NCBI GenBank assembly: GCA_964016885.1
Contig: OZ024758.1
Location: forward strand, 10,788,001 to 10,852,000
Direction: 5' to 3'
Source of the DNA: Eledone cirrhosa
Lineage: Eukaryota
DNA: 64,000 bases
Notes under the pieces: model-generated
What the model was told of the DNA's origin: nothing
Database searches by the model: none
The model's input: the letters and a program-made list of their open reading frames with translations, nothing else
Position numbers and translations under genes: made by a program
Part shown: positions 9,406 through 61,161 of the stretch, in pieces
How positions within the stretch are numbered: the stretch's first letter is position 1
Layout of the letters: every line of letters begins with the position of its first letter

Positions 9406-9784
9406 CTAGGGCGGGTAAAATTCCCGAGATCCATGGACGAGTTCTCTCCAGCGGTCTCTGTCCCTCATTATCACTGCCATGTCCTGCGTCTCCAACAGAC
9501 CAGTGTCTGTCCTTAGGGCATCAACATACGTTAACCTTGGTCTTCCTCTTCCAGTGTGTCCATGTAGGGGATCCCACAGGAGCACTGAGTGCAATGTCAA
9601 CTCTGGATGTCGGTGAGCATGTGCAGCTAACCCCAGTCTCCTCTGTGTCACTTTTGAGCTGACTTTTGGGAGGCTCCCATACAGCTCTGAGTTTTTCATC
9701 CTCAGTGTATACTGATTAATGTTCAAAGCCATCCTCAGCATTCTCGTGTAGCACCCATCCACCATCTGAGTGAGTTTCTTGGTG
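9406..9784 (-). mobile_element. 5'-truncated RTE/RTEX-clade LINE 3' end with (TG)n tail
   Basis: Open frame DGCYTRMLRMALN...ELYGSLPKVS...RHPEL...LLWDPLHG..GRGRPRLTYVD.LR.DTG...RDRDRW; stop is followed directly by (TG)n. Confidence 0.85.
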
Positions 9785-10649
9785 ATATATATGGTGATAT
9801 TGGGGTATTTCAATACAGATCCTGGTAAAGATGAGACAAGCTAGTGATGCTATCCACTTTTCTTGTTACAGCACCATTTCGAAATAGGCTAAGGACTTTC
9901 TCAGCTGTTGGAGATCATGTTGTAGACTGTTAGGCTACGGGCTGCATAGCTAATCAATTATTAATAGAAAAAAGAACCAAGTTATACATTAAAACACATC
10001 TTTGTTCTACACATGTTTCAATATAGAGAAGTGGGCCATTCCACGATACATACAAGGTATTTGTTCATCGCTCCACATATCCTCTTTGGCGTAGAAGGTA
10101 GATAAGGTACGATAAAGGGAGTTGCTTGCTATATATCCCGTATTATCGATAGCCAGACAAGTTATTTCGCCCTGTTTATAAGGATTTATCATCAACGATA
10201 TAAGTAAACATTGAAAACAGGGATAACATTGTGTGTTTCAATATTGTTCCAAGATTTATGTGCGCCAACGTAGAATAAGACACAAGAGGTTTATATCTTG
10301 CAACTAACGGTTTGGAGTCCAGAGAATAGCAAGGTAGTAGAATCGTTGGTGTGTATGACACAATGCCTTGTGTTCTGAGTTCCAATCCAACTGACATTAA
10401 CTATACATTTCATCTTTTAGACTAAAGTACCAGTCAATAAGATCTGAATTCAAATCTCAGTGTGGCCTATTTGAGTGGTTGATATAATCAGTTTCCCACA
10501 AATTGATAATTTCATGATTTTATCAAATAATTAAAGTACATCTCCTGTTTGACGATACCTTCATCTACAATTGTCTCAGAGGTCCAAAAAGGGATCGTAT
10601 CACCACCCTTTCCTTCCCTAAACGACACAAACGCATCGATATTAAAAAT

Positions 10650-11173: not shown

Positions 11174-11236
<63 letters not shown>

Positions 11237-11240
<4 letters not shown>

Positions 11241-11425
11241 ATGTTTAACCCCGACGGTAGAGCTCAAGCCGTCTCGACGGCTATTTCTGCGTCCAGAAAT
11301 AGCCGTCGAAACGGCTTGAGCTCTGCCGTCGGGGTTAAACATTTTCCTATTACCCACTCTACTACCCTAAGTATTGAGTACTCTGATGCGTTATGGTCCA
11401 CCTGGTTCCTTACCACACTTCCTTC

Positions 11426-11428
<3 letters not shown>
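11237..11428 (+). mobile_element. TA-embedded fold-back element (family A; putative PLE pLTR end with hammerhead 3' half)
   Basis: Hairpin 11237-11346 (loop cgtc) followed by tail tacccactctactaccctaagtattgagtac...ccttcgtt; (TA)n on both sides. Confidence 0.8.
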
Positions 11429-11469
<41 letters not shown>

Positions 11470-14310: not shown

Positions 14311-14496
14311 CGGTAGATTGGCAGTATCGGTAGAGGGTCGGACGCCATGCTTTCCAGCATAGTTACGTCCCTTTACGGTCTGAGTTCAAATCTCGTCGAG
14401 GTTGACTTTGCCTTTCATCTTTACGGGGTCTATAAAATAAAGTACCAGTAATGCACTGGGTAATTGCTGGCCTTGTGCCTAAAGTAGAAACAATTA
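14311..14496 (+). mobile_element. Main SINE
   Basis: Consensus match with A and B boxes. Confidence 0.92.
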
Positions 14497-14706
14497 TGTA
14501 AAAATCCCATTTTGCTTCATTTCTCCCCATTTCGACGCCCTATTTTTCATGGTACTCCTCGTTTGGCAGGTCTGTAATACTGGCCGGCAAACACAACTTT
14601 CGGAGATATGGTGACACCTTAACAGCCCTGACTTTACATACTTTATATAAATAAATCATTAACAACTCGTAAATAAAATATAACTAACAGCATAGTTTAA
14701 ATATGT

Positions 14707-14897
14707 AATAATTGTTTCTACTTTAGGCACAAGGCCAGCAATTACTCAGTGCATTACTGGTACTTTATTTTATCGACCCCGTAAGGATGAAAGGCAAAGT
14801 AAACCTCGGCAGGATTTGAACTCAGACCGTAAAGGGACGTAACTATGCTGGAAAGCATGGCGTCCGACCCTCTACCGATACTGCCAATCCACCACCC
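14707..14897 (-). mobile_element. Main SINE, inverted relative to 14311-14496
   Basis: Consensus match; imperfect TSD tttaaatatgt(tt)aataat. Confidence 0.92.
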
Positions 14898-17592: not shown

Positions 17593-17695
17593 TATATATA
17601 TATATATATTATAGATATACATATGTACGGACATGTACACATATATTATGTACATACTGCCAGCATGCACTATATATATATATATATATATATAT

Positions 17696-17889
17696 AAGTT
17701 TTAATATAGATGAGATTCTACAGGACTAGAACTGTTTCATTCTTTAGAAATCATCAGGATTCCTGATGATTTCTAAAGAATGAAACAGTTCTAGTCCTGT
17801 AGAATCTCATCTATATTAAAACTTTTATACTCTGCAATGTATTGAGTACCTTACTTACTGCGGTTACCTCCGATTCAACCCGGAATAAC

Positions 17890-17890
<1 letters not shown>
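17696..17890 (+). mobile_element. TA-embedded fold-back element (family B): 129-bp palindrome plus tail
   Basis: Perfect 64-bp arms 17696-17759 / 17761-17824; tail contains gtattgagtac also found in family A; (TA)n both sides. Confidence 0.8.
17758..17806 (+). ncRNA. Minimal type-I hammerhead ribozyme
   Basis: GATTC-CTGATGA-TTTCTAAAGAAT-GAAA-CAG(TTCTAGTC)CTG-T-A-GAATC: stem I GATTC/GAATC, short stem II with a U.U closing mismatch, stem III ACAG/CTGT, GUA cleavage triplet. Confidence 0.75.
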
Positions 17891-19237: not shown

Positions 19238-20380
19238 AGGTCACCAGTTGGTGCTACTGGTAACATGTATCCCAGTACAACCTATCTCATGGTCGGGTCG
19301 TTGGCGACTAAACTGGCAACCCCACCAAGGTTTCTTGGTGAGGAGGGTGACTTTGGACATCCTGCAGGACTAAAAACAAAACCTGTCAAAGGGCAAGGGA
19401 GCTCTTAAGAGTCAATGGCCATCCAAAATCACCGGGAGAGATGACCCCTTAGCCTTTGTCAAGGCAGAATTCTAGGAGAAGGAAAACTCTGATATAACAC
19501 CTGCAACCCTGATGGTATCTAATGATGTTGACTTGTTCTTCTTTTTGGTAAATATCATCTTGGTTAAGAGAGTGGGACTGGCTTTGTGCAGTGTCTTTGC
19601 TCACTATAAAAGCTTCACGGCACAGGCATTGCTTTATATCTGGAGATCTCTCTGCACTTGTCATCACATGGTGCCATGGGCCCTGCACTATGTGTCAATA
19701 ATGGTCACAAGTGTAGTCTTTGTACTAGAGTTTTCAAGTCGCTGGCTGGACTAAAAAGTCACACTCGTTCAGCGCATCGGTAGGGGTTCTCCTACATGGG
19801 TATAAAGTAGTGGCCGTACTCGAAAACGAGTTGGCAGCCACCATATATGTATGTATGTATGAGAGTACACAAGAACAGGAAAGCAGGCACCTGTGGAGCT
19901 ATAAGTGTTCATCAGACGACGACATGTGATGTTTGTGGAAGGGTATGCAGGTCGAGTAGTGATCTCACACGACACCTTGGGTCACATGGTACCATGGGCC
20001 CAGCACTATATGTCAGTGGTTGTCACAAGTGTAGTGTTTGTACCAGAGTTTTCAAGTCACTGGCTGGACTAAAAAGTCACACTCGTTCAGCGTATCGGTA
20101 GGGGTTCTCCTACATGGATATAAAGTAGTGGCCGTACTCGAAAATGAGTTGGCAGCCACCATGTATGTATGTATGTATGTATGTATGTATGTATGTATGT
20201 ATGTATGGTACCAAAGGCAAAGCACTATGTGTCAATAATTGTCACAAGTGTAGTGTTTGTACCAGAGTTTTCAAGTCGCTGGCTGGACTAAAAAGTCACA
20301 CTCGTTCAGCGCATCGGTAGGGGTTCTCCTACATGGATATAAAGTAGTGGCCGTACTCGAAAACGAGTTGGCAGCCACCA
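19238..20380 (+). mobile_element. Internally deleted RTE-like element: 5' UTR plus three tandem 3' ends with C2H2 zinc-finger coding and (TATG)n tails
   Basis: 5' UTR motif ctaggagaaggaaaactctga; CDVCGRVC...LTRH...CSVCTRVFKSLAGLKSH; the tail ttggcagccacca-(tatg)n ends at ~19843, ~20160 and ~20380. Confidence 0.7.
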
Positions 20381-25213: not shown

Positions 25214-25310
25214 TACCGAGGTTGACTTTGCCTTTCATCCTTACGGGGTCGATAAAATAAAGTACCAGTAATGCACTGGGTAATTGCTGGCCTTGTGCCT
25301 AAAGTAGAAA
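25214..25310 (+). mobile_element. 5'-truncated main SINE with 20-bp TSD
   Basis: TSD aactattatggtagcagtcg at 25194-25213 and 25309-25328. Confidence 0.9.
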
Positions 25311-25509
25311 CTATTATGGTAGCAGTCGGATTCTGACCTGACCACAGGTCTCGTGTCAGTGTGTCTTCTACGGATATCATCATTTACTGTCATCAATTTT
25401 GTGAGCATTGCAAATATCAAACCTTCGCCCTGTTATTTCTTAGTGGAGTCGTATTTTTGTGAAATAATATAACTCTTAGAGCAACCCCTCCCAGTATATT
25501 TCCATTCTA

Positions 25510-25700
25510 ATAATTGTTTCTACTTTTGGCACAAGGCCAGCAATTATCCAGTACATTACTGGTACTTTATTTTATCGACCCCGTAAGGATGAAAGGCAAA
25601 GTTAACCTCGGCGGGATTTGAACTCAGACCGTAAAGGGACGTAACTATGTTAGAAAGCATGGCGTCCAACACTCTACCGATACTGCCAATTCACCTGCCC
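25510..25700 (-). mobile_element. Full main SINE with 20-bp TSD
   Basis: TSD tatatttccattctaataat at 25495-25514 and 25701-25720. Confidence 0.92.
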
Positions 25701-28950: not shown

Positions 28951-29062
28951 GAGCTCTGGCGTCGGGGTTATACTTTTTCCTATTTCCCACTCTACTACCC
29001 TAAGTATTGAGTACTCTGGTGCGTTATGATCCATCTGGTTCCTTACCACAATTCCTTTGTTA
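28951..29062 (+). mobile_element. Family A element, truncated (no inverted arm)
   Basis: gagctctggcgtcggggttatactttttcc plus conserved tail, ending in (TA)n. Confidence 0.8.
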
Positions 29063-29158
29063 TATATATATATATACACACGTACACATATATACATAAA
29101 TACAAATACATACATAAATACAAATACATACATAAAGATACATATATACACACACACG

Positions 29159-30151: not shown

Positions 30152-30258
30152 TATATATATATAATATATATATATATATAAATATATATATATAATATAT
30201 ATATATATAATATATATATATAATATATATATATATAATATATATATATATAATATAT

Positions 30259-30573
30259 ATTAATCAGTATACACTGAGGATGAAACACTCAGAGCTGTAT
30301 GGGAGCCTCCCAAAAGTCAGCTCAAAAGTGACACAGAGGAGACGGAGGTTGGCTGGACATGCTCACCGACATCCAGAGTTGACATTGCATTCAGTGCTCC
30401 TGTGGGAGCCCCTACGTGGACACACTGGAAGATGTAGACCAAGGTTAACGTATGTTGATGCCCTAAGGACAGACACTGGTCTCTTGGTGACGCAGGACAT
30501 GGCAGCGATAATGAGAGACAGAGACCCGCTGGAGAGAATCGTCCATGGATCTCGGGAATTTTACCCGCACTAG
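30259..30573 (+). mobile_element. 5'-truncated RTE/RTEX LINE 3' end, same family as 9406-9784
   Basis: MKHSELYGSLPKVSSKVTQRR..LAGHAHRHPEL...GSREFYPH; lies inside a TA tract. Confidence 0.85.
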
Positions 30574-30598
30574 AAAAAAAAATATATATATATATATA

Positions 30599-30791
30599 TA
30601 ACGAAGGAAATGTGGTAAGGAACCAGGTGGACCATAACGCACCAAAGTACTCAATACTTAGGGTAGTAGAGTGGGTAATAGGAACGAGTAGGACCCCGAC
30701 GTCTGAGCTCAAGCCGCTTCGACGGCTAATTCTGGACTCCAGAATTAGCCGTCGAAACGGCTTGAGCTCAGCCGTCGGGGTCCTACTCGTT

Positions 30792-30796
<5 letters not shown>
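30599..30796 (-). mobile_element. Family A fold-back element
   Basis: Tail 30599-30677; hairpin 30678-30796 centred at 30737; (TA)n both sides. Confidence 0.85.
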
Positions 30797-31505: not shown

Positions 31506-32425
31506 TATCTACTTATATTTATGAATTTAAAAACAAAATTAAGGGGAAATACATCACACACATTATATACGCACACGGATATACTGTATTATGTATGTTT
31601 ATGCCCCCCCCCCCCCCCCCCGCGCCCATATATATAAATTTCTATCAACTGATTAAAAATATCGGCAATTGATACTGAATAGGAAATCCAAATAAGGTCA
31701 TGTGACTTCAAAGGAGAACACTAAACAAATATTTGTTCATTTTGCTGAAGAAAATATCTAGTTGTAGTATAATCTCCAGGTTTATTAATTATAGTAGAAA
31801 GTATACTAGGTCCCTTAACTATTGATGGAGTCGTAGACACGCCGTATGGATGTTTTTGAATATTTAAACCTGGTGAAGCTCATCCCTCTCTTGGTCTGAA
31901 CTAAACTGAGTTTTCCAGAGAGAGAGAGGATGCGAGAAAGATATTTAGAGGAAAGATCTACCCCAGTGCAGGACTAGTACTTAATTTATCGAACTCTAAA
32001 GAATGGAAAAGCAAAGTTGACTTCGCCAAGATTTGAACTAAATACTGCAAAGCAAAGCATTGTATCCAACGTTTTAATGAATCTGCCAATCCGCCGAGTT
32101 GATACTCGTGTTATTTTGTCGAGTCTAAATGAAGTTCTACAACGATCAATGCAAGTAGGAAAATGATATCTAAAGGAGATTTAAGGAGACATAAGAATAC
32201 TTCAATACATTTATCCGCCAATCTATTGATTCAACCGAGTTTTATAGTGAATAAAAGTTGGATTTCTGATATAGTGAAACACCACCACAAATCCTGAGAA
32301 GTTTTAATCAATTATATTTATTCCCAGGGACACCTTCGCTGGTTCGAAACTGTCAAAGCCTACTCGATGAACTGAGCCTGAAATTAAAAGATCCATCTTT
32401 TGACCAACATGTATTCACTCATATT

Positions 32426-32576
32426 CAAATTATGGTGCGCTTTCATCAGATAAAATACAGATTTGTTTTATAAATAAATAAGCTCCAACCGTTAAGGTTG
32501 TTTTTTTTCCGGGTATGTCAATATTTATTTATAAAACAAATCTGTATTTTATCTGATGAAAGGGCACCATAATTTG
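32426..32576. repeat. 55-bp inverted repeat (32426-32480 / 32522-32576, 1 mismatch) overlapping a hammerhead
   Basis: Directly visible. Confidence 0.85.
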
Positions 32577-32610
32577 CCTTGGTTGCCCTTGAAATATATA
32601 TAATAAAATA
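32545..32610 (+). ncRNA. Minimal type-I hammerhead ribozyme
   Basis: TATTTTAT-CTGATGA-AAGGGCA(...)TGCCCTT-GAAA-TATATA-T-A-ATAAAATA: 8-bp stem I, 7-bp stem II, palindromic loop III. Confidence 0.82.
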
Positions 32611-32648
32611 AATATGGTTTTATAAATATAGTTTCCATTTATTAATAT

Positions 32649-32707
<59 letters not shown>

Positions 32708-33715: not shown

Positions 33716-33956
33716 AGAGGACCATGTCTGCTGCGCGTGAATGTGTGTGTATGCATGCTTGCGTGTGGGCTGTAAAGAGAATTTTATTCCAGTACACTTA
33801 TAAATTAATATGTTACGTTTAATGTTGTCTCTATATAAACTTATTTAGATATATTGAGGGATAAATATTACATTTTATTGCTATACATTCTCGTTATCAC
33901 GTGAATAATCTTGTATTTAAAACACCTTAATTTATAATATAATAGCAACATACCGC

Positions 33957-33993
33957 CTCTCTCTCACTTTCTCTTTATCTCTCAATTTCTCTG

Positions 33994-34024
<31 letters not shown>

Positions 34025-35039
34025 TTCTCTTTCTTTTATCTCTTTCTCTGTCTCTTTATCTCTTTCTCTGTCTCTTTATCTCTTTCTCTGTCTCTTTATC
34101 TCTTTCTGTCTCTTTCTCTCTTTCTCTCTTTCTCTCTTTCTCTCTCTCTTTATCTCTTTCTCTGTCTCTTTCTCTTTATCTCTTTCGCTCTCCTGTCTCT
34201 CTCTTTCCCTCTCCTGTCTCTCTCTTTCTCTCTCCTGTCTCTCTCTTTCCCTCTCCTGTCTCTCTCTTTCTCTCTCCTGTCTCTCTCTTTCTCTCTCCTG
34301 TCTCTCTCCTGTCTCTCTCTTTCTCTCTCCTGTCTCTCTCTTTCCCTCTCCTGTCTCTCTCCTGTCTCTCTCTTTCTCTCTCCTGTCTCTCTCCTGTCTC
34401 TCTCTTTCCCTCTCCTGTCTCTCTCCTGTCTCTCTCTTTCTCTCTCCTGTCTCTCTCTTTCTCTCTCCTGTCTCTCTCCTGTCTCTCTCTTTCTCTCTCC
34501 TGTCTCTCTCTTTCCCTCTCCTGTCTCTCTCCTGTCTCTCTCTTTCTTTCTCCTGTCTCTCTCTTTCTCTCTCCTGTCTCTCTCCTGTCTCTCTCTTTCT
34601 CTCTCTTTCTCTCTCCTGTCTCTCTCTTTCCCTCTCCTGTCTCTCTCCTGTCTCTCTCTTTCTCTCTCCTGTCTCTCTCTTTCTCTCTCCTGTCTCTCTC
34701 TTTCTCTCTCCTGTCTCTCTCTTTCTCTCTCCTGTCTCTCTCTTTCTCTCTCCTGTCTCTCTCTTTCCCTCTCCTGTCTCTCCCTTTCCCTCTCCTGTCT
34801 TTCTCCTGTCTCTCTCTTTCTCTCTCCTGTCTCTCTCTTTCTTTCTCCTGTCTCTCTCTTTCTTTCTCCTGTCTCTCTCTTTCTCTCTCCTGTCTCTCTC
34901 CTGTCTCTCACTTTCTCTCTCCTGTCTCTCTCTTTCTCTCTCCTGTCTCTTTCGCTCTCGTGTCTCTCTCTTGCGCTCTCTCTTTCGCTCTCCTGTCTCT
35001 CTCCTGTCTCTCTCCTGTCTCTCTCCTGTCTCTCTCTTT
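33957..35039 (+). repeat. ~1.1-kb polypyrimidine minisatellite built from 12- and 21-bp units (ctctcctgtctc / tctctcctgtctctctctttc)
   Basis: Directly visible; almost no A on the + strand after ~34180. Confidence 0.92.
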
Positions 35040-35091
35040 ATTCCTCGACTTCTTTACTGCCTGCTACAGCAGCAAAGTGCACTCTAACTAT

Positions 35092-35130
<39 letters not shown>

Positions 35131-35436
35131 TATACATATATATATATATATAAAATGTACTTTCAGTTATTTGTATGAACTCTGAAATGTGTATTTGTTG
35201 TTTGTATATGTCCTCTTATAACGTGTTTCTTTCATTTAAAACATGAATAATAATAATTTCCAGGATATTGATCTATATTTTTAATGTGATTAGTGTAGGA
35301 TTTGTATGTTTTTATTCCCGTTTTTGTTTTTATATACTTTTATTTTTATTTTCACTTCGTTTTGCTGATTGAAATTACAAAAGTAACATCACAGAGGGAA
35401 ACATATGAAAGTTCATTTCATCAACGATGTAAAATG

Positions 35437-36014
35437 TAATTGTTTCTACTTTAGGCACAAGGCCAGCAATTACCCAATGCATTACTGGTACTTTATTTTA
35501 TCGACCCCGTAAGGATGAAAGGAAAAGTCAACCTCAGCGGGATTTGAACTCAGATCGTAAAGGGACGTAACTATGCTGGAAAGCATGGCGTCCGACCCTC
35601 TACCGATACTGCCAATCCACCGCCCTATATAATAATTGTTTCTACTTTAGGCACAAGGCCAGCAATTATCCAGTGCATTACTGGTACTTTATTTTATCGA
35701 CCCCGTAAGGATGAAAGGCAAAGTCAACCTCAGCGGGATTTGAACTCAGATCGTAAAGGGACGTAACTATGCTGGAAAGCATGGCGTCCGACCCTCTACC
35801 GATACTGCCAATCCACCGCCCTATATAATAATTGTTTCTACTTTAGGCACAAGGCCAGCAATTATCCAGTGCATTACTGGTACTTTATTTTATCGACCCC
35901 GTAAGGATGAAAGGCAAAGTCAACCTCAGCGGGATTTGAACTCAGATCGTAAAGGGACGTAACTATGCTGGAAAGCATGGCGTCCGACCCTCTACCGATA
36001 CTGCCAATCCACCG
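35437..36014 (-). mobile_element. Three head-to-tail near-identical main SINEs (period ~196 bp)
   Basis: 35437-35625, 35631-35821, 35827-36014; tatataa spacers; shared variants ctcagcggg and gatcgtaaag. Confidence 0.93.
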
Positions 36015-36267
36015 GTAATAAATGTCCTTAAGCAGTTTTATTTTTTTTCCTTTTTTTTTTCTTTCTACCAAAAATTTATTTCTATGATTTAACAACTGAT
36101 ACTGTGTGTGTGTGTGTGGGGGGGGGAGGGGGGGGGGGGGGGGGGTTAATCACTTAATTATATCCTTTAATAATTTTGGTAGAGAACCCAACAACGTTAT
36201 CATTCCCCCAGAGTCTACGTTATTCTATTTTCATACTTATTTCAACATTATTTTTTTTCTATTTCAA

Positions 36268-36457
36268 GGGCGGTGGATTGGCAGTATCGGTAGAGGGTCG
36301 GACGCCATGCTTTGCAGCACAGTTACGTCCCTTTACGGACTGAGTTCAAATCCCGCCGAGGTTAACTTTGCCTTTCATCCTTACGGGGTAGATAAAATAA
36401 AGTACCAGTAATACGCTGGGATAATTGCTGGCCTTGTGCCAAAAAGTAGAAACAGTT
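36268..36457 (+). mobile_element. Full main SINE
   Basis: TSD tta(t)n ctatttca at 36248-36266 and 36456-36472. Confidence 0.92.
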
Positions 36458-36796
36458 ATTTTTTCTATTTCATATATGTAGATAATCGTTAATTAAAAAT
36501 TTAATTTATCAATTCATTTATTAGAGAGAAAATATATGATTAATTTTCAATAGTATTAAGTGTATTGACTTTAAAATTATTATGGTTCTTTCGAAATGTA
36601 ATTACAAAATATATAATTCTATAATAAGAAACTTATTTCCTTTAATATTGTTAGTATTCGGAATCATACATAATTTCTATACAACTAAATACTAGGATTG
36701 ACTGATCTTTTCTTTCTTTGTACTGGTCACCATTGAGACTACCGGTGTCCTTGGTCCCTGGCTTGCCGTTTTATTTCGCCAAATTGGGCGTTTTGG

Positions 36797-38018: not shown

Positions 38019-38044
38019 TATATATATATTTATATATATATATA

Positions 38045-38184
38045 TAATGAAGGAATTGTGGTAAGGAACCAGATGGACCATAACGCACCAGAGTACTGAA
38101 TACTTAGAGTAGTAGAGTGGGTAATAGGAAAAAGTATGACCCCGACGGCTTGAGCTCTGTCGTCGGGGTCATACTTTTTCCTAT
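38045..38184 (-). mobile_element. Family A element with shortened hairpin (38124-38184)
   Basis: ataggaaaaagtatgaccccgacggc...gtcgtcggggtcatactttttcctat plus tail. Confidence 0.8.
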
Positions 38185-47793: not shown

Positions 47794-47845
47794 TTTCTTG
47801 GTACAAAATACTAACCCGTATGGGTTAGTATTTTGTACCAAGAAA
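47794..47845. repeat. Perfect 24-bp-arm hairpin
   Basis: tttcttggtacaaaatactaaccc-gtat-gggttagtattttgtaccaagaaa. Confidence 0.9.
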
Positions 47846-55803: not shown

Positions 55804-56073
<270 letters not shown>

Positions 56074-56997: not shown

Positions 56998-57248
56998 AAA
57001 AAGAGCATTAACACAGATAAGTGACACAGTAGGGTTTACTTCTAGCATTTACATATGTTTTACATGTGTTGTTGTTATTGATTTCGTCTTAAAAACGATA
57101 TTCTCAATAATAAATTGAAAGAGTTCTAGTCTTGTGGAATCCATTTCTATATTATACATGATGTTTACACTTTACTTATGTATTGAATATCTTACTAAAC
57201 TGTAGTTACCCCAATTGAATCCGAGACACACTCTCCCTCTCTCACGCT

Positions 57249-58555: not shown

Positions 58556-60036
58556 TATATATATTGTATTATATATATATATATGTGTGTGTGTGTGTAT
58601 GTATGTCTCTTTATTTATATGTATGTGTGTGTGTGTGTGTGTGTGTACATATGTCTTTGTTTGTCATTTTGAGCTATAACATTACAAAACGAACATCCAC
58701 AAGATCATATATATAATAAATGTGCAAATGTCTTTTTTATTTCGCTGCCATATTGACCTAAAATTTGAGAGAAAGTACATCCACAAAACCTCATACATTA
58801 TTAATCAACATCTCACATTAAAGAATGTATGGTATTGTATTTATTTTGACCAATAATAATTAACCAGTAATAATTTTGAATTACTTCGAATACTATCGTA
58901 AATAGCTACTAAAATAGAAGCAATAGCTTCTATGAATTATCTCCCCTAGCAATCGGTCATCTGCTCGCTTTGTGCTGTTTCCGGATGAGGCTTGTTATAT
59001 GTGTGCATGCGCGTGTCTGTGTGTATGTTGAATTGTTCGTTACATTGCGTAAGTGTTTTCTTGTAAATGATTGAGCTAATTTTAAGAGAAGAAAATATTA
59101 AAAATATATATCGAATATATATTTTATATTATTATAGTGATCATTTATATACATGCGAACATACAACTCTCGATCTCCCTCTCTCTCTAGCATTTTATTG
59201 AACAAGAGGGGGGTAAAGGAGCTCTATGGATAGGTTTTAACGATATCACATATTTGGTCGAGTTGCCATTTGCTTCTCCTATTGATAATGATGTTAAAAT
59301 CACAGCATAGCTAAAAACACAGTTTATTCTACTCGGTACGGTTTCAATCTGGCTGTTCGGCTACATACCTTGAATAATGAGACCTGCTCCCTGTCTGCGA
59401 GAAAATATAAAATTCAAAGTAGGCGACAACGCTGTCATTCCACAATGGCGAGTTGTCTCCAGCCCCAACAATAGATATAGGTGGTATTTGATTGAGTGTG
59501 TAGTTAGTGAAGTTTGAATACTCATAGATAGTTAAAGATAAAGCTAGTGGGTAATGGATGACATTCCATGTAAATGAGGGCAATTTGTGAATATTTCACT
59601 TCAGTTGTTCTGGAGTTTCTGTTATGTGACAAACCATCATGACGTTATGCACTTATCAACATACACTGATATTCTACTATGTGACCAGCGTCTCACACTC
59701 ATAATGAAACTAATTATTCAAAAATCAACAAGATAAAAAAAAAATTGATTCATTATTCAATCCAATTTCTTCCAGGCCTACCGCAATTGTTAAACTTCAT
59801 AATATTGATGACTCACCTTCTGATTGATTCACCCTCCACCGATCAGTCATGAATAGGAGTCTACTCTAATTCCATATTTATCATATGAAGCTCATCTGTT
59901 TTGTTATATACAACTGGGAATTGAAACCGTTTAATTCTTATATACTACAATGATTTTATATATATATATATTATAAAGATTCGGGGCGTGACGGCTGAGC
60001 GTTTCAACAGCTAGTTCCAGATTGTTTCATATATAT

Positions 60037-60224
60037 ATAGGAACGAGTAGGACCCCGACAGCTGAGCTCAAGCCGTTTCGACGGCTAATTCAATTAGCCG
60101 TCGAAACGGCTTGAGCTCAGCCGTCGGGGTCCTACTCGTTCCTATTACCCACTCTACTACCCTAAGTATTGAGTACTTTGGTGCGTTATGGTCCACCTGG
60201 TTCCTTACCACATTACCTTCGTTA
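60037..60224 (+). mobile_element. Family A fold-back element (hairpin 60037-60145), preceded by a diverged half-copy at 59975-60028
   Basis: 54-bp arms around 60091 with 1 mismatch, conserved tail, TA flanks. Confidence 0.85.
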
Positions 60225-60939
60225 TATATATATATATAATGAGAGAGAGATTATATTAACAGCAATCTCTGTAATTTTCTTATTACTGTTTAGTTGTGTG
60301 TCTACATATACAACGTATACGTAGTATGCAACAATAACTCTTACCATCAGATAACTGAAACAATTGTCTGAGACACTCTTCAATGCTTGTCAGCAGAGCC
60401 CGATTTGGTATTTAGCACCCTAGGGTAGCTCTGCAATGTGTATTCCCCGTTTACCCAGTTAAAGGTTGGTTTACTCTACGTATTACCATCATTGTTTAGT
60501 TTAATAAAAAAAATTATAGAAATAAATTTCCTGTCACTTACATTCGTTGAAATACACACAGAGAATCAATAGCTACATATTCATTATAACATTGCAGAAT
60601 GACTGACAATTTGCTTGGGGCGTCGGTATTCTATCAAAATCTTTTGTTTCCATTATAGTTAGCAATATAACATTGGTTTTCTTGAAGCATCGATCAAAGA
60701 ATTTTATATATTTTGCTATCAGGTATTTCTATTCAGACAGTTTATTCGATAAGGGGAAACATATTAATGATATTTTCCACTATGGGCTATGTTAGATTTA
60801 AATTTACATCTAAAGTTGTACTGGGAATAAAAGTTTATAAGCTGTTAGAAAATTACTGTTTTTATATGAACTATGGAATATACCCATTTTCTATTTTTTC
60901 TTATAGTCATACTCTCTCTCTCTCTTACACATGTATATA

Positions 60940-61085
60940 TTGTTATACTTTGGGTGGGTCATGATGCCAATAAAAATACACGCACCTGCTGGTTTTCACT
61001 TCAAATTTGTAATAAATTGAAGTAAAAATCAACAGATGCGTGTGTTTTTATTGGCATCATGACCCCGCCCCCCAAAGTATAACAA
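60940..61085. mobile_element. Complete MITE with ~50-bp TIRs and TA flanks
   Basis: ta-ttgttatactttgggtgggtcatgatgccaataaaaatacacgcacctg ... cagatgcgtgtgtttttattggcatcatgacccc..ccaaagtataacaa-ta. Confidence 0.75.
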
Positions 61086-61161
61086 TATCTGTTTCAACAC
61101 ACGTTTCCAGATAACACATCTTGCAAAACAAATAAAAAAACGAAGTGTGTATGTATGTATG

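Follow-up and report, generated by a model that had tools for sequence, protein, structure and literature searches.

A hammerhead-bearing insertion with an inverted partial copy of itself, likely derived from a Penelope-like element

The locus at 32426 to about 32650 of the window, by which we mean the whole analysed stretch of 64,000 nt, is probably a short insertion, likely dead, of a pseudo-LTR, the hammerhead-bearing 3′ end of what is likely a Penelope-like retroelement (PLE). A 5′-truncated forward copy (32481 to ~32650, ending in (TA)n) meets there, head-to-head, an inverted 55-bp duplicate of its middle part that likely arose in the course of insertion. The locus combines an inverted repeat, a hammerhead motif, a junction specific to the locus and a (TA)n end, and its sequence is present in high copy number. 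It measures 225 bases and is the stump of a high-copy animal repeat, likely from the 3′ end of a PLE, set in AT-rich animal DNA of cephalopod-like appearance with many microsatellites and one abundant short repeat. The right limit of 32610 given in the sequence-only reading is too short, the insertion reaching about 32648-32657. The features are collected in Table 1.

Table 1. Features of the insertion, its flanks and comparable insertions in the window (positions are those of the window).
Feature	Position	Strand	Remarks
Left flank, outside the element	32100-32419		single-copy: X1 depth 4.15; contig record 1 (32060-32452) with 0 differences
ATATT, possible 5-bp target-site duplication	32421-32425, also 32647-32651	+	chance ~4.5%
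Inverted arm, copy of 32522-32576	32426-32480	-	5′ strand of stem I, CTGATGA, 5′ strand of stem II; ends in loop II
Head-to-head junction, 1 nt fits both sides	32480-32481		locus-specific by X1 depth
41-bp "spacer", the 5′-truncated start of the forward copy	32481-32521	+	family records from organisms A, B and C start at 32480
Extended stem I: distal 12-bp helix 32526-37/32617-28 and 7x6 internal loop around the hammerhead	32526-32628	+	prediction
Type I hammerhead motif, palindromic stem III ATATATAT	32545-32610	+	descriptor searches; cut after A32602 predicted
One-sided extension past the arm end, 76 nt to (TA)n, candidate "tail"	32577-32652	+	carries the 3′ half of the ribozyme
(TA)n microsatellite closing the insertion on its 3′ side, then (TATG)n	32653-32682		sequence
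Six other short head-to-head insertions	11237-11346, 17691-17829, 30678-30796, 38124-38184, ~55830-55900, 60037-60145

The inverted arm and the repeat family

The 55-bp inverted copy is present as first described from the letters: 32426-32480 matches 32522-32576 as its reverse complement (54 of 55 positions), and 41 bp separate the arms. The sole mismatch is 32439/32563, pairing ends on both sides of the arms, and the whole arm-spacer-arm hairpin folds at z -12.3. Within the spacer a small hairpin is predicted at 32486-32500.

Four of nine listed public sequencing runs were mapped to 32060-32650, namely X1 and X7 (two samples of organism A), X4 (organism B) and X6 (organism C). Matches comprised 5,922 contigs of X1, 52 of X4, 5 of X6 and 27,928 raw reads of X7. 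In X1 the depth is 4.15 over 32100-32399 vs a summed 6e4-3e6 over 32420-32650, a sum that is not to be read as copy number. The segment 32420-32650 is plainly a large high-copy repeat family with sister subfamilies, and it appears in at least three organisms. The X1 depth peaks near the 3′ end, a pattern expected of 5′-truncated retrocopies but confounded here by the sister families. Many family records diverge from the window sequence between 32640 and 32648 and extend at least 65 nt further; the window itself turns to (TA)n at 32653.

The junction of the two copies behaves quite differently from the family in X1, where the depth with 32479-32482 internal is 13.8 vs 43,254 at 32488. Among the 21 records listed, three start at 32480, one from each of the three organisms, and the X1 and X4 pieces that do so continue 22 and 31 letters past it. 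Because family records start at 32480 and the junction is almost never internal to them, the 41-bp spacer is simply part of the element, with the forward copy 5′-truncated at 32480 and the junction private to this locus. Another X1 contig (record 2, 32433-32562; 24 differences and 6 gaps) may represent a second locus with a similar inversion.

Several apparent boundaries in the read data were discarded. Opposite-strand joints at 32426/32578, 32433/32574, 32454/32552 and 32457/32549 were rejected as inversions, since a colinear copy placed on an inverted-repeat reference gives the same picture. Read ends piled at 32574 and 32428 were likewise rejected as element ends, both coinciding with AATT sites, and the piles are likely RAD enzyme cuts. 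The excess of X7 over 32590-32640 likely reflects a GCATGC site in the loose-end consensus of a sister family. For the RAD enzymes behind the AATT and GCATGC sites in the read data we assume the identities. On the left of the insertion, the six flank bases next to the arm match loop II of a sister family (one X4 contig, loose end 32420), so the boundary there may be a microhomology. The ATATT pair is a possible target-site duplication, not an established one; its right copy overlaps element-like sequence.

The architecture of the insertion is already published. Among the publications found on hammerheads in cephalopods or Octopus and on Penelope in octopus no description of the family itself turned up, though Repbase, Dfam or supplements may include it, and the word "hammerhead" has 0 occurrences in the main text of PMC13282606.

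The hammerhead motif and its variation

The coordinates of the sequence-only reading are right. The hammerhead has stem I at 32545-52/32603-10 (8 bp), CTGATGA at 32553-59, stem II at 32560-66/32584-90 (7 bp), GAAA at 32591-94 and the palindrome ATATATAT at 32594-32601, with the predicted cut following A32602, ~50 nt before (TA)n. Stem II continues for a further 3 bp. The core CUGANGA, GAAA and NUH are present, and helices I-III stand in the type I order. A strict hammerhead descriptor matched once in the window and in 0 of 100 locally shuffled windows. The relaxed descriptor gave three matches (17763 +, 21361 - and 32553 +) vs a null mean of 0.035 (max 1, 200 shuffles). On its own the hammerhead folds weakly (z -1.67), 9 of 200 shuffles being equally good.

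In Rfam searches no hammerhead family reached the gathering score anywhere in the window, and locally none appeared at E<=5; its hammerhead models may miss PLE variants with a long stem II. A miRNA reading was rejected, the local Rfam matches being generic hairpin or miRNA models that all fall below threshold.

The motif had also been called a clean minimal hammerhead. It is present, but with its predicted extension of stem I it is not strictly minimal, and its clean stem II rests on G32563. The rest of the family has C at this position: ~98% of the depth in X1 (176,628 of 179,552), all of X4 and X6, and 2,433 of 2,669 reads in X7. The inverted arm also retains this majority C opposite 32563. 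Since both the family and the arm have C, the perfect 7-bp stem II is likely due to a private C-to-G mutation here. No change at the partner C32587 was seen among the 40 variant rows listed, and pair 4 of stem II is therefore likely a C-C mismatch in the family.

Two other pairs of stem II appear to change together. In X4, 32564G>A occurs with 32586C>T (depth 86.6 each), and 32565C>T (11.8 = 9.06 + 2.74) with 32585G>A (9.06); both pairs are matched by contig depth and are unphased. The X7 read counts agree for the 32565/32585 pair (948 and 730) and disagree for the 32564/32586 pair (624 vs 67), where many reads stop at 32574. Stem III is self-complementary in three versions, i.e., in this copy, in the copy at 21.3 kb and, via G-U, in a 32598A>G variant. 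The candidate covariation of stem II and the self-complementarity of stem III suggest that, as far as the comparison of sequences can tell, the fold would have been under selection in the parent lineage and not in this copy.

As a monomer, helix III would have 2 bp only, with a predicted pair probability of 0.0. The active dimer finds no support in nearest-neighbour energies (-24.2 vs -36.5 kcal/mol; palindrome duplex -3.2). PLE hammerheads of this kind are reported, in the available part of the source, to have no activity as monomers and low activity as dimers (PMC4209133). A lone PLE-type motif with a 2-bp stem III is not expected to cleave as a monomer (PMC4209133). Pairing of the palindromic stem III likely lets the hammerhead act as a dimer in the parent lineage.

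Origin of the insertion

The placement of the 32420-32650 family among the PLEs is inferred from its architecture; the parent RT/endonuclease gene was not found. None of the six frames of 31650-32650, read through stops, and none of the 98 ORFs scanned in the window had RT/GIY-YIG homology. A missing ORF is expected at the locus, which is a 170-bp stump. A pattern scan of viral contigs (0 matches) and a motif search of the part of the PMC8557442 supplement at hand did not yield the parent sequence either. Four pattern loci in metagenome contigs were rejected as homologues, two lacking the helices and two lacking wider similarity or an RT-sized ORF. These last two, in contigs L002 (6001-6041) and L004 (5490-5530) that look like animal DNA, share one small hammerhead-like motif, the stem III of which is palindromic.

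The sequence-only reading had called the locus a partial inverted pLTR arrangement of a PLE insertion. High copy number, 5′ truncation, the head-to-head junction, the (TA)n end and the palindromic stem III agree with it, while the missing parent RT/GIY-YIG ORF leaves it incomplete. According to the accessible parts of the PLE literature, such insertions have an inverted 5′-truncated copy at the 5′ end, optional tails and a (TA)n bias, the one-sided tail being 30-40 bp (PMC8557442, Craig et al., 2021). The inverted pLTR is described as shorter than the direct one, and palindromes at the junction are read as self-priming (PMC3846280, Arkhipova et al., 2013). Metazoan PLEs are described with a palindromic helix III, a helix II of 7-8 bp and opposite-strand pairs 100-700 bp apart (PMC4209133).

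Like EN+ PLE insertions as these sources present them (PMC8557442, PMC3846280), the locus has an inverted partial copy abutting a 5′-truncated forward copy, unequal sides, a (TA)n end and a hammerhead near the 3′ end. Unlike them, it is without an ORF, its extension is 76 nt vs 30-40 bp, the arm stops within loop II, the junction is a 41-nt loop and not a perfect palindrome, and the target-site duplication is only a candidate. The motif resembles the metazoan PLE hammerheads described (Cervera and de la Peña, 2014, PMC4209133; PMC6765202) in its type I form, intact core, long helix II and palindromic helix III that needs a partner, and single truncated copies of those are widespread. It differs from the descriptions available in the 8-bp stem I with a predicted distal 12-bp helix, in having no unpaired base between core and stem II, and in the C-pyrimidine mismatch at stem II pair 4 that the family seems to carry. 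With Hydra-clade PLEs, including Hydra-1_Obim (PMC8557442 File S1-S2), the locus shares the (TA)n preference and a hammerhead within ~100-200 nt of the 3′ end, and one Hydra magnipapillata entry of that supplement has an inverted 5′-truncated copy. The Hydra-clade motifs seen in the supplement mostly have a non-palindromic stem III of 3-4 bp, unlike this locus, and do not match it in sequence (PMC8557442).

Judging by the architecture and the PLE literature (PMC8557442, PMC3846280, PMC11167929), the insertion most likely arose as follows. RT/GIY-YIG protein from an autonomous copy elsewhere, acting in trans, would have nicked AT-rich DNA, and ~170 nt would have been reverse transcribed, beginning at the RNA's 3′ terminus. 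The other side might then have been completed by fold-back of the cDNA at 32522 or by a second priming at the loop II site, 32576. Whether by fold-back or by internal priming, the arm would stop 76 nt before the 3′ end. No private allele is common to the arm and the forward copy among the rows listed, and the sole differing site can be a later mutation.

We hold it unlikely, though worth stating, that PLE insertions in this genome use two fixed start sites of reverse transcription separated by 60-80 nt, double the published tail, with loop II of the hammerhead as the inner site in this family. The long stem II hairpin with its conserved C-pyrimidine mismatch would then be an RT start or protein-binding signal, and, if true, this would be a role of a PLE hammerhead without cleavage. 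For an anole PLE, the ribozyme is reported in the part of the study available to require protein and to be dispensable for insertion in vitro (PMC11167929). If arm ends cluster at loop II genome-wide, this would bear on why PLEs keep hammerheads that can be dispensed with in such an assay (PMC11167929).

With a similarly small chance, the family could be a non-autonomous hammerhead repeat mobilised by PLE proteins, either a non-LTR retrozyme or a satellite with a monomer of >~240 bp, of which the locus would be a solitary truncated monomer. Animal non-LTR retrozymes are likewise non-coding, high-copy and AT-rich with a type I hammerhead (Cervera and de la Peña, 2020, PMC7229834). The very high depth over 32580-32640 and the family sequence reaching at least 65 nt past 32640 agree with such a repeat, as do the lack of any ORF found in 31650-32650 and the extended stem I, which is like that of canonical type I motifs. 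From the sources as available, retrozymes occur in molluscs (PMC7229834) and have been proposed as PLE derivatives (10.64898/2026.07.22.740005). They are however described as tandem repeats of 150-450 bp with circular RNAs (PMC7229834), and this copy is solitary and truncated. Both window copies that share stem I are solitary, lying 11 kb apart on opposite strands with no tandem unit at either, and among the loose ends listed behind 32640 none returns to 32480-32520. In addition, the long stem II and the extended palindrome bring the motif closer to those of PLEs than to the canonical form with its 4-bp helix II in the descriptions available (PMC4209133).

It is improbable that the forward copy was inserted first and the arm added afterwards through a template switch in replication or repair that had nothing to do with retrotransposition. 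Microhomology at the junction is only 1 nt, the end of the arm coincides with no known element end and the context is AT-rich and self-complementary, all of which would suit such an event. Against it stand the inverted arms in six other repeat insertions of the window. Moreover, at the one site of difference the arm shows the base that most of the family has, so its copying either preceded the change in the forward copy or used another template.

The sequence-only reading had proposed that the arm masks the ribozyme as an antisense. As a folding prediction this stands. With the arm left out, pair probabilities in stems I and II are 0.5-1.0 and the hammerhead fold costs 3.3 kcal/mol; with the arm included, they are all 0.0 and the cost is 39.6 kcal/mol, i.e., the hammerhead fold is predicted to be abolished. 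A plus-strand read-through RNA of this copy would, on this model, form the 55-bp hairpin and not cleave, as a side effect only. As a function, masking is not supported, since five of the six other palindromic insertions lack CTGANGA on either strand and the hammerhead at 21.3 kb is armless. With five of six other head-to-head insertions devoid of a hammerhead core, arms arise with or without a ribozyme to mask, and the arm is likely a by-product of insertion, not a ribozyme switch.

That selection keeps the arm as an antisense lock against self-cleavage of a host transcript crossing the locus is thus very improbable, in spite of the predicted rise in folding cost and of the arms carried by two of the three complete hammerheads in the window. 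A lone 2-bp stem III motif is not expected to cut as a monomer (stem III probability 0.0; PMC4209133, as available), and the ribozyme of one PLE, from the text at hand, depends on protein and is unnecessary for insertion in vitro (PMC11167929). Nor was a host exon found nearby in homology searches of the frame 32270-32473, which are weak tests. This frame (AG at 32326-27, running through the arm to its stop) was considered as a host exon and is not supported by homology. It has no homologue among longer proteins (a weak test) or among 1.84 billion representatives (33 aa, a short query); a NUDIX_4 match stayed below threshold (E 0.01).

That the inverted junction is an artefact of assembly or of fold-back in the library is scarcely credible: none of the contigs listed spans the whole stretch, but short-read contig record 1 crosses the flank-arm junction with 0 differences (X1 may be the source sample, and this evidence may then not be independent), contigs of depth ~6.7 include 32481 internally with the letter of the window, and the arms differ at one site.

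On the preferred reading, that of a PLE-type insertion, the locus is one more dead stump in a genome full of them, useful as a marker. Its family carries a hammerhead variant that Rfam misses, with an extended stem I and a long stem II in which an internal mismatch is inferred.

Other insertions and repeats in the window

Five of the six other head-to-head insertions belong to one family with differing centres, and a complete hammerhead is present only in the sixth (17691-17829). The one-sided tails to (TA)n in five of the six measure 82, 61, 77, 77 and 77 nt, vs 76 nt at this locus; the copy at 55.8 kb is omitted from these lengths for its internal deletion. The palindrome counts leave out 47794-47845 (24-bp inverted repeat), which has no hammerhead-like part and no (TA)n. 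The other arms in the window end 3′ of their predicted cut sites, whereas the arm at this locus ends in loop II.

Mini-insertions of the one family are found in (TA)n at 11229-11433, 28951-29065, 30596-30796, 38042-38184, 55828-55978 and 60033-60227. They have an apparent 3′ half of a hammerhead, no CTGANGA and a fixed tail of 77-82 nt. Five are head-to-head palindromes, the centres of which vary by copy and sit in predicted hairpin loops, consistent with a fold-back made anew at each insertion.

The insertion at 17691-17890 is a near-perfect palindrome with 69-bp arms, centred 3 nt before the CTGATGA of a complete hammerhead. This hammerhead, at 17763, has a 6-bp stem I, a U-U at the base of stem II and a 3-bp stem III, with (TA)n on both sides and a 61-nt one-sided tail; it fits the Hydra-clade pattern in the available part of PMC8557442 File S2 better than does the hammerhead at 32545-32610. 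A diverged relative of the 3′ part of the 17691-17890 insertion lies at 57116-57223.

A sister hammerhead on the minus strand, at 21369-21300, shares the 8-bp stem I of the locus; its palindrome is ATGCGCAT, and pair 4 of its long stem II is a C-U mismatch. It lies without an arm in a ~310-bp segment between two (TA)n runs, and (TA)n follows ~42 nt past the cut. Aligned over their whole length, the elements at 21.3 kb and 32.5 kb score no better than shuffles (108 vs shuffle maximum 114), and the two share only the 17-nt stem I plus core.

Close inverted pairs of the abundant short repeat, 93-96% identical, occur at 14312-14893, 25216-25611 and 35827-36460. Further inverted repeats without hammerhead motifs are the imperfect palindrome of ~150 bp at 60937-61088 and the 24-bp arms at 47794-47845. 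As to coding remnants, two frames of 19610-20098 contain fragments of C2H2 zinc fingers (Pfam zf-C2H2, E 3e-10), possibly from a broken or spliced zinc-finger gene. Two similar ORF fragments at 9406-9840 (-) and 30211-30573 (+) have no Pfam match, and we take them to resemble the C-terminal end of a LINE protein. Finally, 33921-35185 is a CT-rich tandem array of ~1.2 kb with 10-11/21-nt periodicity and several open frames, a simple repeat.
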